A stretch of 64,000 nt of DNA from NCBI GenBank assembly GCA_037574385.1, contig GCA_037574385.1_4529.1; one strand, given 5' to 3'. Each line of letters opens with the position of its first letter. Within the stretch, counting starts at the first letter, position 1. Positions 50,025 through 55,353 of this stretch are shown piece after piece. This stretch comes from a phage. The notes under the pieces were generated by a model. The model saw only the letters and a list, made by a program, of their open reading frames with translations. It had not been told where the DNA came from and searched no databases. Both the position numbers and the translations under genes were made by a program.

Positions 50025-51032
50025 TTATGATACTAATTCAATCCATGCAGGACGCAGAACATCTTGCACCATTCGGACTAATTCTTTCTTAACAAGATTC
50101 GGATTATCAGATGATGTTAATACAATACCTTCACGAGAAGTTTCTTCCAGAATATCTTGAACAGTCAATCCCATCACTTTGCCAAAATCTTTTGACGTTA
50201 CAGTCCCAATCTTAGAAATAACATTATTAACAGGATTTAATGTAACATAACAAGCTAGAACATCAAGCAAGTTTTTGTCAATTTCAGTTAATGGAACCCG
50301 GGTTTTAATAGGCTTATCAGACTTTTTCTTTTCACTGAATTTAGAGTTCTTGCACTTAATCGCTACACGAGTACCGTTTGGCAGCCATTTAGGGAAACAA
50401 GGCTTCAGAACATAACCTTCTGCCGTATTATCGCCAATAACATTAGCATCAAATACGCAATTATTTGCTTCGACAAGGTCTTCTGATGCAGTAGCGTTAT
50501 AAGCGGCTAAGACGGAATCAAGGTCGTTTGGAATCATGATAAGAGCATCAAATGTTCCACGTCCAAGCATTGGTGCCATTTTAAAACCAAACGTATTACA
50601 TAAATCTTGCATTTCGTAATCACTCATGTAATAAGTATCACCGCTTTCCGTGTTTATGATGATATCGAATACATAGAAATCTTTTTCACCGTAGTCAACA
50701 CCTTTCTGAATTCCACCACCAGCGAATTCACCAAAGACTTGATATGTCACCGGCACTGAAGTTGAAATACTGCCCATGACTTCTTGAACGCCTTTAATAG
50801 CTTTATCATACTTTTTGAGTACTATTTCATAGCCATAAAAATCTTCTGCTGGAAGAATAGGGCCTGTGCGCTTGGCGCATGTGACGTTGTCACGTTCAAT
50901 TATTAACGAGAAGTTAGTCCCATGGATTTTCTCACGTGCTACCCAAACACCAGTAGTCAAACCGTTAGTGTAGAGTTTTTCAATAAACTTAGAGTTGTAG
51001 TGGTTTTCAAGACTGCTGTATTTCTTAAACAT
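50025..51032 (-). CDS. rnlB: RNA ligase 2 (Rnl2)
   Basis: 335 aa (T4 334); nucleotidyltransferase motif I KIHGTN; position after gene 24. Confidence 0.85.
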
Positions 51033-51151: not shown

Positions 51152-51403
51152 TTAGAACTTGATTTCTATCCAATGTCCATCACGTTGGTCGTGATTAATT
51201 TTGTACTGAAAGCCATTATCACGTAACCACTGCCCGACTTGCTCTGTGATAGTTAAATCATTCTTTGATGGATAGTACGTGAATTGTGTCTGGCCTTTGT
51301 CAGCGGCTTTCTCTGCCATCACAGAGAAGTTAGTAATAAAATCACTCAACAAATTGGCTTTAGCGGCCAGAGCCCTTTCTCTTAATTCCTGTGCAAAACT
51401 CAT
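51152..51403 (-). CDS. Hypothetical protein at the T4 24.2 position
   Basis: 83-aa ORF; synteny. Confidence 0.5.
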   Translation of the reverse strand: MSFAQELRERALAAKANLLSDFITNFSVMAEKAADKGQTQFTYYPSKNDLTITEQVGQWLRDNGFQYKINHDQRDGHWIEIKF

Positions 51404-51600
51404 TTCTTCACCTTTTTGTTAATCAAACGTTTACGGTATACAACTTTTTCTTTTGCTTTAAACTTTGACCGAGCTGTCTCGGCTTTAGTCCATAGTAATC
51501 CAACTTCTTTAGGTTGTAAACCGATTTTTTGAGCAATTTCTACGAATGAAAATCCTGCCTCATGTAATGTATAAACTTCAACTTCAGCTCTCATAATCAA
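51400..51600 (-). CDS. Small HTH-like protein at the T4 24.3 position
   Basis: 66 aa; helix-turn-helix-like FSFVEIAQKIGLQPKEV, basic C-terminus. Confidence 0.5.
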   Translation of the reverse strand: MIMRAEVEVYTLHEAGFSFVEIAQKIGLQPKEVGLLWTKAETARSKFKAKEKVVYRKRLINKKVKK

Positions 51601-51674
51601 TCCAGTGTTATTTGGTTTGTGCCATTATATACATCAATCTCAAGTTGTGTTTTATATGCTTTAAAACGAAGAAA

Positions 51675-51688
51675 GGGGCCGAAGCCCC
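51675..51688 (-). terminator. Hairpin GGGGC-UUCG-GCCCC immediately after hoc stop
   Basis: 5-bp GC stem with UUCG tetraloop on minus strand. Confidence 0.45.
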
Positions 51689-51694
51689 TTACGA

Positions 51695-53110
51695 TTATGG
51701 ATATGTATAAATGATACCAGTTTCTAGCGCAGTTTTATGGATGATGTATCCATTACGTGATTCTTGAACATCAACTTCTGGATAGTCTTTCATCATCTTC
51801 TGAAGAGTGTAACGATGCAGGTAGTATTTACTATCTGGATCGTCAATTTTCCAATCTTTACCTTCTTCAGTCATTTTTTGGATTTCATCCATAACCCACC
51901 AACCACACCAGATGTAAGCTGAAGTACGGTGTGGAAGAGGATGAACATAAGGTAGTTCACCTTCTGGTTCAATTGGAGTCCGTTCAGCAATAACAACTTC
52001 AGCGGTTGAACTAATTGTCTTTGAAGTATAGTTATCTTTAGTTAATACTGCTTCAACTTTAATTGTATGAGTACCAGCTGAGGAGGTATCAATACTGTAA
52101 GTATTAGTAGAATTACTTTCTGCTACGTTGTCTTTCTTCCAAGAATACACAATATTAGTATCACCTGGAGCACCAGTAACAGATGCTGTTAAAGTTGCAG
52201 TTCCACCAACAGTAGTATTAACTGATGGCGGAGATAAAGAAATGGTGGCACTATTAAATGTCGCATTATTAGTTACTACTGTTGCTTCTGCTGAAATTTC
52301 TTTTGTAACATAATTTGTTGCAGAAACAGATACGGTGCATTTAAGAGTTTTACTTCCTACCTCGGTTGGAGTGAATTTATACGTAGCAGAAGTTGCATCC
52401 GGAATATTACTGTCATCCATTGACCACTGGAATGATGTAGTAGCACCTGAAGGTGCACCAGAGACATTTGCAGTTAAAGTAATAGGAACACCAAAGACTG
52501 TAGTCGGAGACTCAGGCGTAATTTTTAGTGTTGAAGAATTAGCCTTTTTATTTACAGTCAAAGAAACCGCTGATGATTCTACTGTTTTATCAACGTAATC
52601 AGTTGCAGTCACTGTGACGGAGCAAGTTATAGACTTAGTTCCTTCAGATGTTGGTGTATATTCAAAGGTTGATTGCTTTTGACCATCAACAGCGACCCCG
52701 TCAACTTTCCATGTATAAGCAATAGCAGCACCACTAGGTTGATTGCTTACATTAGCAGTGAATGTTGTTGCTGTTCCAATTTCTACTGCAGCCGGAGAAG
52801 CCGGAGTAACAGCGACGGTAGAATTATTTTCTTTCTTATTAACAGTGATAGTTGTTGATGCTTCAGCTATTTCCGGATCTCCTGCGGAAAGTGTATTAGT
52901 TGCAACCACTTTAATTTTTTTTGTTCCTGCCGGAGAAGCAAGAGTATAATCCATTGTAGCAGCCGTAGACTCCTGTGCTATATCATCTACAGTCCAGACG
53001 TATGTAATAGTACCATCTGGAGTTTCACCTGCAGGTGTAGCAGTGAATGTTTGTGAACCTCCAATAACCCCTGTAGGAGTTAAAGGAGATAATGTGACAG
53101 TGAATGTCAT
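51695..53110 (-). CDS. hoc: Hoc (highly immunogenic outer capsid protein) with four tandem Ig-like repeats
   Basis: 471 aa; four ~95-aa Thr/Ser-rich repeats (e.g. TANVSNQPSGAAIAYTWKVDG..., TANVSGAPSGATTSFQWSMDD...) plus C-terminal capsid-binding domain. Confidence 0.8.
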   Translation of the reverse strand: MTFTVTLSPLTPTGVIGGSQTFTATPAGETPDGTITYVWTVDDIAQESTAATMDYTLASPAGTKKIKVVATNTLSAGDPEIAEASTTITVNKKENNSTVAVTPASPAAVEIGTATTFTANVSNQPSGAAIAYTWKVDGVAVDGQKQSTFEYTPTSEGTKSITCSVTVTATDYVDKTVESSAVSLTVNKKANSSTLKITPESPTTVFGVPITLTANVSGAPSGATTSFQWSMDDSNIPDATSATYKFTPTEVGSKTLKCTVSVSATNYVTKEISAEATVVTNNATFNSATISLSPPSVNTTVGGTATLTASVTGAPGDTNIVYSWKKDNVAESNSTNTYSIDTSSAGTHTIKVEAVLTKDNYTSKTISSTAEVVIAERTPIEPEGELPYVHPLPHRTSAYIWCGWWVMDEIQKMTEEGKDWKIDDPDSKYYLHRYTLQKMMKDYPEVDVQESRNGYIIHKTALETGIIYTYP

Positions 53111-53119
53111 AAGTTATCC

Positions 53120-53788
53120 TTATTTTAATGTTACGAAAGAAGAATTACGAGTTTCACGAATTAGAACTGATCCATCGCGATTAATATAATAAATTAAGCT
53201 AAATAATGTTTGGTGAGCAGAAGCGTGCACAAAACTGGTTGGGCGAGATTTCCAATCAGGTGTTTCGGCTATCCATTGATAAATCCACCAAGGAACAGTA
53301 ACATATCCTAGGCCTTTGCCTAATTTAATGAGTGTAGGACTAAAATTTTCAGGCAGAACAAATTTTACTTCTTTATTTACCTCTGTCTCAGGCTCCTTTT
53401 CAGATTCAACAACCTGAGTAATTGCTTCTTCGAATTTATCATGGTCGAATTCTTTTTCTTGTTCGACAACTTCTAATACTTCAACTTGTTCTGTTGGAGA
53501 ATCAAACAACAGAATAGCTTCTTCTTTAACTTCTTCGTTGGTGAAATTAACACCGTCCACATCATCTGCGGCAGTAATTAAATCGGTTATAGATAATCCA
53601 TCAGTTTCAGGTAACGGTTCATCAGCCAGTGCGTTAAGAGCTTCTTCGATATCAATAACAATATTATCGAATGATTTTGTTTTCTTAACACTAATGCCAA
53701 ATTGTTTCGCATATTCGAACAGTTTAGCTTTGGCTTCCTTTTTATCAGAAAGAGCACGCAACTCTTCAATATAGTCTTTATCGATCAT
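53120..53788 (-). CDS. inh: Inh (inhibitor of prohead protease gp21), by synteny
   Basis: 222 aa acidic protein between hoc and uvsW (T4 Inh 226 aa). Confidence 0.65.
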   Translation of the reverse strand: MIDKDYIEELRALSDKKEAKAKLFEYAKQFGISVKKTKSFDNIVIDIEEALNALADEPLPETDGLSITDLITAADDVDGVNFTNEEVKEEAILLFDSPTEQVEVLEVVEQEKEFDHDKFEEAITQVVESEKEPETEVNKEVKFVLPENFSPTLIKLGKGLGYVTVPWWIYQWIAETPDWKSRPTSFVHASAHQTLFSLIYYINRDGSVLIRETRNSSFVTLK

Positions 53789-53801
53789 GGTATTTCCTCA
53801 T

Positions 53802-53809
53802 TATAAATA
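53802..53809 (+). promoter_or_regulatory. T4 late promoter TATAAATA for uvsW
   Basis: Exact TATAAATA 30 bp upstream of uvsW start. Confidence 0.55.
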
Positions 53810-53838
53810 TAACTATATTTATTACATGGTAATTTGAC

Positions 53839-55353
53839 ATGACTGACATTAAAGTACATTTTTATGATTTTAGTCACGTTCGCATTGAATGCGACGAAAG
53901 TACGTTTTACGAACTTCGTGACTTTTTTAGCTTTGAAGCTGACGGGTATAAATTTAACCCAAAATATCGCTATGGGCAATGGGATGGTAGAATTCGACTT
54001 TTAGATTACAATCGTTTGTTACCATATGGACTTGTAGGACAAATAAAAAAGTTCTGTAACAATATGAGTTATTCTGTATGGATTGACCCTAAAATCTTTG
54101 AGACCGAAGACCTTACCAGGGAAGATTTTGACGCATGGCTTTCTAAACAAGAAATTTATTCAGGCAATACCAAAATCGAACCGCATTGGTATCAAAAAGA
54201 TGCAGTATATGAAGGTCTAGTTAATCGTCGTCGAATTTTAAACCTTCCGACATCAGCAGGTAAATCACTAATCCAAGCACTTTTAGCTCGGTATTATCTA
54301 GAGAACTATGAAGGTAAAATTCTCATTATCGTCCCTACAACAGCATTGACAACCCAGATGGCTAATGATTTTGTTGATTATCGCTTGTTTAGTCATTCGA
54401 TGATTAAGAAAATTGGCGGTGGTGCTGATAAAGCGGACAAATCTAAAAACGACGCCCCAATTATTGTTGGCACATGGCAAACAGTAGTTAAGCAGCCTAA
54501 AGAATGGTTCTCTCAGTTCGGTATGATGATGAACGATGAATGCCACTTAGCAACAGGCAAAAGTATTTCTTCAATCATCTCAGGATTAAATAATTGCATG
54601 TTTAAATTCGGTTTATCCGGCTCATTAAGAGACGGAAAAGCCAATGTAATGCAGTACGTAGGTATGTTCGGCGAAATCTTCCGTCCTGTTAGCACGTCTA
54701 AATTAATGGAAGACGGACAGGTAACTGAGCTTAAGATTAATAGTATTTTCCTTCGTTATCCAGACGAATTCGCCACTAAATTAAAAGGTAAAACATACCA
54801 AGAAGAAGTTAAAATTATTACCGGACTAAAACGTCGTACAAAGTGGATTGCTCAACTTTCAGTCAAATTGGCTAAGAAAGACGAGAACGCCTTTGTAATG
54901 TTTAAACACGTTACACACGGTAAAGAAATATTTGAAGCTATTAAAGAGCTTGGATACGAAAAAGTTTATTACGTATCAGGTGAAGTTGATACTGAAACAC
55001 GTAACGCGCTTAAAGTCATGGCAGAAAATGGTAAAGGCATTATTATTGTCGCATCATATGGAGTGTTCTCTACCGGTATTTCAGTCAAGAATCTTCATCA
55101 TGTTATTTTTGCCCATGGTGTTAAATCAAAAATTATCGTACTTCAAACCGTAGGTCGCGTGCTTCGTAAGCATGGTTCTAAAGCTGTTGCTACAGTTTGG
55201 GATCTCATCGATGACGCAGGTGTAAAACCTAAATCATTAAATACTAAAAAGAAGTATACTCATCTTAATTACTTGTTAAAACACGGTATTGATCGTATCC
55301 AACGTTACGCTGATGAGAAATTTAACTATGTAATGAAAACAATTAATTTATAA
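53839..55353 (+). CDS. uvsW: UvsW SF2 DNA/RNA helicase
   Basis: 504 aa; Walker A PTSAGKS, DECH box (MNDECHLA). Confidence 0.9.
   Translation: MTDIKVHFYDFSHVRIECDESTFYELRDFFSFEADGYKFNPKYRYGQWDGRIRLLDYNRLLPYGLVGQIKKFCNNMSYSVWIDPKIFETEDLTREDFDAWLSKQEIYSGNTKIEPHWYQKDAVYEGLVNRRRILNLPTSAGKSLIQALLARYYLENYEGKILIIVPTTALTTQMANDFVDYRLFSHSMIKKIGGGADKADKSKNDAPIIVGTWQTVVKQPKEWFSQFGMMMNDECHLATGKSISSIISGLNNCMFKFGLSGSLRDGKANVMQYVGMFGEIFRPVSTSKLMEDGQVTELKINSIFLRYPDEFATKLKGKTYQEEVKIITGLKRRTKWIAQLSVKLAKKDENAFVMFKHVTHGKEIFEAIKELGYEKVYYVSGEVDTETRNALKVMAENGKGIIIVASYGVFSTGISVKNLHHVIFAHGVKSKIIVLQTVGRVLRKHGSKAVATVWDLIDDAGVKPKSLNTKKKYTHLNYLLKHGIDRIQRYADEKFNYVMKTINL

Follow-up and report, generated by a model that had tools for sequence, protein, structure and literature searches.

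An RB69-type hoc gene predicted to encode four Ig-like domains in front of a T4-like C-terminal domain

Hoc (highly immunogenic outer capsid protein) of T4-like phages (Straboviridae) is present at 155 copies per prolate head, is bound as a monomer at the centres of the gp23 hexamers, and is dispensable for infectivity. T4 Hoc consists of 376 aa and contains three Ig-like domains. We analysed a stretch of phage DNA of 64,000 nt (GenBank assembly GCA_037574385.1, contig GCA_037574385.1_4529.1; hereafter the window), in which the initial annotation had assigned positions 51695..53110 of the minus strand to a Hoc homologue of 471 aa with four Thr/Ser-rich Ig-like repeats of about 95 aa in front of a capsid-binding C-terminus, one repeat more than in T4. 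The locus raises the questions of whether the protein contains four such domains and where the additional domain came from. The results described below indicate, with a probability of about 95%, that 51695..53110 is the hoc gene of an RB69-like Mosigvirus and that its product is composed of four Ig-like domains and a C-terminal domain.

The locus is a single unbroken ORF of 1416 nt, which starts with ATG and encodes 471 aa followed by a stop codon. The protein was matched by PHROG 1149 (“Hoc-like head decoration”) with an E-value of 4e-138 and by the T4 Hoc chain 5vf3_Z of a cryo-EM entry with an E-value of 3.5e-142; in the latter alignment, residues 1–191 of the window protein correspond to residues 1–191 of T4 Hoc, and residues 289–471 correspond to residues 194–376 (288 bits for this second segment). 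These matches confirm the assignment as a 471-aa Hoc homologue. The window Hoc is acidic (pI 4.76, net charge about −17), as is T4 Hoc (pI about 4.7), and acidity with a pI of about 4–5 has been reported for T4, RB49, and most Hoc homologues (PMC10385173).

Over the 24 kb around hoc, the window shared 97.8% identity with Escherichia phage RB69 (genus Mosigvirus) and 98.4% with Shigella phage ESh27. The window gene shared 98.2% nucleotide identity with RB69 hoc (NC_004928, 112612-114027), which is also 1416 nt long, and we refer to it as the RB69-type allele. RB69 Hoc (NP_861884.1, RB69p194) likewise consists of 471 aa and has the same genomic position and the same architecture of four Ig-like domains and a C-terminal domain. 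The two proteins differ by six substitutions (T2A, P237L, A375T, R377Q, I422T, and D423E; window residue first), and P237L is the sole one of them inside the additional domain. Full-length hoc genes with 95–99% identity were found in 29 phage records, 31 records covered at least 80% of the gene, and the cluster representative for the window Hoc stood for 54 member sequences. The four-Ig Hoc of the RB69 type is already known: GenBank has contained RB69 Hoc, at 471 aa, since 2003.

The gene is located where hoc is found in related phages, between inh and 24.3/24.2/rnlB in the head-gene region. On the minus strand, inh (53120-53788) is the upstream neighbour of hoc, and 24.3 (51400-51600), 24.2 (51152-51403), and rnlB (50025-51032) are found downstream; uvsW (53839-55353) lies beyond inh on the plus strand. 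The order rnlB-24.2-24.3-hoc-inh on the minus strand with uvsW on the plus strand matches that of RB69, and it matches that of T4 except for segE, a homing endonuclease gene that is present between inh and uvsW in T4 and absent from the corresponding interval (53789-53838) of the window. The spacing between inh and hoc is 9 nt. A Shine-Dalgarno-like AAGGA, read from the sequence, is found at 53117..53121 (minus strand), 6 nt upstream of the hoc ATG, and overlaps the inh stop codon. A GC-rich hairpin resembling an intrinsic terminator (AAGGGGC-TTCG-GCCCCTT, with the core GGGGC-TTCG-GCCCC) and followed by a T-run is found 4 nt past the hoc stop codon at 51663..51690 (minus strand; its coordinates are also given as 51690..51673), and the annotation of phage PhAPEC2 includes a terminator at the equivalent position. 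An exact late-promoter motif, TATAAATA, precedes uvsW closely at 53802-53809 on the plus strand, whereas the minus strand immediately upstream of inh and hoc contained no exact copy of it. The program-called ORF of 24.3 starts at TTG and encodes 66 aa, whereas RB69 and PhAPEC2 are annotated with 195 nt and 64 aa at this gene; translation of 24.3 probably begins at the ATG that lies two codons past the TTG. Antisense ORFs of 61–87 aa on the plus strand within hoc had no PHROG match and were taken as chance ORFs.

To define the domains, the protein was cut at the recurring linkers that end in TVNKK, and this gave four N-terminal segments comprising residues 1–93, 94–189, 190–284, and 285–378. 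Global alignment with T4 Hoc (NP_049793.1; hoc gene of 1131 nt; PDB 5VF3, 8T1X, and 8T9R) revealed a single clean insertion of 95 aa, which corresponds to residues 190–284 of the window protein and follows the linker SLTVNKK. The fourth Ig-like domain is thus inserted between the second and third domains (D2 and D3) of T4 Hoc, and the difference in length between the two proteins is one domain unit of 95 aa. The six pairwise comparisons among the four segments gave identities of 35–41% with z-scores of 9 to 23 against shuffled sequences, and no Ig-like segment resembled the C-terminal domain in the same comparison. The segments are rich in Thr and Ser, which together account for 31.5% of residues 1–378, compared with 9.7% of the C-terminal domain and 11–13% of the neighbouring proteins.

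A profile HMM was made from the three Ig-like domains of T4 Hoc only, so that the search was not circular. The profile gave four full-length matches in the window Hoc, at residues 1–93, 94–188, 190–283, and 285–377. Domain 1 (aa 1–93; 52832..53110, minus strand) was matched with an i-E-value of 4.5e-27 and is 62% identical to T4 D1. Domain 2 (aa 94–189; 52544..52831, minus strand), which is of the PKD type and ends in SLTVNKK, was matched with an i-E-value of 1.7e-26 and is 57% identical to T4 D2. The extra domain (aa 190–284; 52259..52543, minus strand), which is absent from T4, was matched with an i-E-value of 1.4e-19. Domain 4 (aa 285–378; 51977..52258, minus strand), the counterpart of T4 D3, was matched with an i-E-value of 8.3e-21 and is 46% identical to it.

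The structure predicted by AlphaFold2 from an input alignment of 36 homologues consisted, over residues 1–377 (pLDDT of 86–96), of four consecutive all-β modules, each with about seven strands. The pLDDT values were 87–95 for domain 1 (seven strands), 90–96 for domain 2, 90–95 for the extra domain (seven strands), and 86–93 for domain 4. Among solved structures, Foldseek matched the model best to chains built from Ig-like or cadherin domains, among them several four-domain fragments (Dscam1 Ig1-4, ICAM-5 D1-D4, and Sidekick-2 Ig1-4) and RB49 Hoc (PDB 3SHS; E-value of 7.7e-11). The best viral matches were other Hoc proteins, and those in BFVD included Hoc-like proteins with 1010 and 1092 aa. 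The whole-chain TM-scores were low (0.17–0.36), as would be expected of a flexible, bead-like chain, and the E-values, the topology of the single domains, and the type of target were used instead. The profile, AlphaFold2, and Foldseek results agree in indicating that the N-terminal part of the window Hoc is a string of Ig-like β-sandwich domains, and the T4 alignment, pairwise z-scores, T4-only profile, and predicted structure, as four independent lines, confirm the count of four repeats, one more than in T4, that had been made in the initial annotation.

In regards to the C-terminal domain (aa 379–471, 93 aa; 51698..51976, minus strand), 89 of 91 residues (98%) were identical to T4 Hoc residues about 282–376, and PHROG 21694 matched the domain with an E-value of 3.8e-41. 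The segment YIWCGWWVMDE, which contains the residues equivalent to T4 Trp306 and Trp310, is identical in the window Hoc and T4 Hoc, and W306 and W310 of T4 have been placed at the interface with gp23 (PMC10385173). The AlphaFold2 model of this domain was unreliable (pLDDT <50), probably because of the invariant alignment in this part. The capsid binding proposed for the C-terminus is consequently predicted from the 98% identity to the solved T4 domain and from the conserved aromatic motif, and not from the AlphaFold2 model.

We compared the window Hoc with other Hoc proteins to place its domain number. The 120 best-ranking cluster representatives of Hoc homologues comprised 80 with lengths of 372–379 aa, 31 with 468–472 aa, and nine with 567–570 aa. 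A profile of the Hoc Ig unit identified exactly three, four, and five domains in the 376-, 471/472-, and 567–570-aa classes, respectively, and the added domains were always of the D2 type. The length varies even within Mosigvirus, in which PhAPEC2 Hoc has 376 aa and pEB20 Hoc has 472 aa. RB49 Hoc belongs to the same family (phmmer E-value of 6e-5) and exhibits a similar beads-on-a-string Ig architecture, with three N-terminal Ig domains in its crystal structure and about 15% identity to the window Hoc in the structural alignment. Hoc homologues have been described as a conserved C-terminal domain combined with a variable string of one to ten Ig-like domains, a long example being the homologue of Serratia phage Muldoon with 1174 aa and 10 Ig-like domains (PMC10385173); such long homologues have many more domains than the window Hoc and belong to other genera. 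An additional Ig-like domain has also been reported for a Hoc-like protein of a Klebsiella phage, together with a wide variation in domain number (PMC13435897, 2026). The variable number of Ig-like domains in Hoc is therefore already published (Fokine 2023), and it is also annotated in sequence records: the annotation of RB30 hoc (AY101183, AAM52483.1) traces an “additional immunoglobulin-like domain” back to an intragenic repeat.

RB30 Hoc, a member of the 472-aa class, resembles the window Hoc in that four Ig-like domains precede the C-terminal domain and in that an extra D2-type domain follows D2. In RB30, the extra domain results from a young tandem duplication, visible as a 288-nt tandem repeat with 76% nucleotide identity, and the D2 copies carried by the 472- and 568-aa classes are about 80% identical to each other in amino acid sequence. 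A recent intragenic tandem duplication of D2 of this kind could also be proposed for the window allele, as its extra domain is of the D2 type, directly follows domain 2, and retains the conserved Cys of domain 2. Domain 2 was in fact the best internal match of the extra domain (z = 23), but the identity was just 41% at the amino acid level and 58% at the nucleotide level, compared with 76% in RB30, and the extra domain was no closer to domain 2 than other domain pairs were to each other at the DNA level. No tandem repeat was detected in the window hoc DNA with TRF, and the repeat search revealed only weak matches of at most 43 nt, the longest in-register match being 43 nt at 72%. The extra domain shared about 40–45% identity with each of the other D2-type domains sampled, and the identity between the whole Ig region of the window Hoc and the 472-aa class was only about 58%. 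A tblastn search of 50,697 phage records with the extra domain identified matches of at least 90% identity in 31 records only, all of which were RB69-type hoc, and nothing was found in these records between this level and about 46% identity. A recent duplication of the RB30 type is thus quite improbable for the window allele. As the identity to domain 2 is 41% (amino acid) and 58% (nucleotide) and no DNA repeat accompanies it, the extra domain is, as judged from its sequence, an old and diverged D2-type paralogue rather than the product of a recent slip, and it would have arisen by an ancient duplication or from a foreign D2-type module imported by recombination.

The reading that the protein contains three Ig-like repeats and a long Thr/Ser-rich linker was examined in the light of the Pfam results, which count in its favour. 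Overlapping matches above the gathering thresholds were obtained with the whole protein for Ig_3 (PF13927; 33.4 vs 30), I-set (PF07679; 32.6 vs 23.7), PKD (PF00801; 31.5 vs 23.5), and Ig_2 (30.3 vs 27). When the domains were scanned singly, domain 2 alone exceeded the threshold (PKD, 26.5 vs 23.5 bits), the extra domain and domain 4 remained below it, and domain 1 had no match. The Ig_3 and I-set matches to domain 4 (aa 290–360) were above gathering in the whole-protein scan and below it in the single scan, and the extra domain scanned alone gave sub-threshold Big_7 and PKD matches with E-values of 7e-4 to 7e-3. At its curated thresholds, the domain check by Pfam that had been proposed points to fewer than four domains and would not by itself have decided the count. 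Against a linker, however, residues 190–284 match the T4-only profile end to end (positions 4–92 of 93), align with domain 2 at the identity and z-score given above, and are confidently predicted to form a seven-strand β-sandwich. The pairwise, profile, and AlphaFold2 results refute the reading as three repeats and a linker, to which we assign hardly any probability. Inflation of the length by an assembly artefact, an annotation fusion, or a frameshift, which might be suspected because some records split or truncate the gene (OLB35 as two CDS; a20, NRG-P0074, and CCU7 as partial or double features), is of negligible probability, as the unbroken 1416-nt ORF recurs in the 29 records, which come from different laboratories and include the RB69 reference, the cluster holds 54 sequences, and the protein exceeds T4 Hoc by exactly one domain unit.

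We also compared the window allele with those of close relatives. In the comparison with the Mosigvirus PhAPEC2, the Ig-coding part stood out as a sharply bounded divergent block: nucleotide identity was 55–64% between position 53110, where hoc starts, and about position 51975, whereas the flanks of the Ig-coding part (inh on one side; the Hoc C-terminal domain, 24.3, and 24.2 on the other) were 96–99% identical, with a recovery to 96–98% from the capsid-binding domain on. Two metagenomic alleles with the same Mosigvirus synteny are mosaic and have RB69-type domains in common with the window at 94–100% nucleotide identity. The P0002 allele (L007:3001-4704; 567 aa, five Ig-like domains) contains a foreign D1 and an extra D2-type domain and is then 94–99% identical to the window from the linker between D1 and D2 on. 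In the P0009 allele (L008:3001-4131; 376 aa, three Ig-like domains), D1 and D2 are 96–100% identical to the window, the extra domain is missing, the last Ig-like domain is of the T4 type, and identity to the window returns at the C-terminal domain. The Ig-coding part of hoc is mosaic, and in both alleles the breakpoints lie at the linkers between domains (TITVNKK and SLTVNKK), a pattern suggestive of shuffling at the level of domains.

The last approximately 200 nt of inh (53100-53300) and the region encoding the Hoc C-terminal domain (51700-51960) were 88–95% identical at the nucleotide level between T4 and the window, whereas the genes around them were 50–80% identical, which makes these two regions locally the best conserved. 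They bracket the variable Ig-coding part, and they could serve as anchors for recombination. A tentative interpretation, to which we give somewhat less than even weight, is that the Ig-coding part of hoc is an exchangeable, domain-modular cassette that is shuffled by recombination at the linkers, and that the extra domain represents a separate lineage, possibly with a ligand specificity of its own. The mosaicism might then reflect selection for different ligands on surfaces or in mucus, and the linkers may be preferred sites of crossover or simply the only junctions from which a folded protein results.

By homology to T4 Hoc, the window Hoc would be a monomeric fibre of four tandem PKD/I-set-like β-sandwiches of 93–96 aa followed by an α/β domain of 93 aa. 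Each gp23 hexamer would hold a single Hoc molecule at its centre, anchored through the C-terminal domain, and the Ig string would project outward as a fibre about 40 Å longer than the 180 Å fibre of T4. By analogy, the window Hoc is expected to be dispensable for infection and growth, its negative charge may keep the virions dispersed, and it may adhere weakly and reversibly to glycans, mucus, or bacterial surfaces. The mucus-adherence model forms part of the basis for the adhesion proposed here. The effect of the number of surface Ig domains on adherence to mucus or surfaces that had been suggested in the initial annotation is plausible in view of the work on T4 Hoc, the function and architecture of which have been published (PMC10385173, PMC7602432). 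The literature that could be searched yielded no functional data on RB69-type Hoc.

The same protein is recorded in the databases under various names, including “PKD domain protein”, “capsid and scaffold protein”, “capsid whiskers protein”, “capsid protein”, and “hypothetical protein”, and a Shigella sonnei assembly lists a 472-aa relative as “endonuclease”. The split or truncated hoc genes of the OLB35, a20, NRG-P0074, and CCU7 records are a further irregularity of this kind. The practical value of the finding is the correct annotation of Hoc records. Otherwise it is of little consequence: Hoc decorates the head and can be dispensed with, and T4-like phages have already been documented to vary in the number of Ig domains. 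In phage display and vaccines, an RB69-type Hoc would place an N-terminal cargo one domain, or roughly 40 Å by our estimate, farther from the capsid. The mosaicism among near-identical phages could provide a small natural experiment on how the number and type of Ig-like domains relate to adherence to mucus or cell surfaces.
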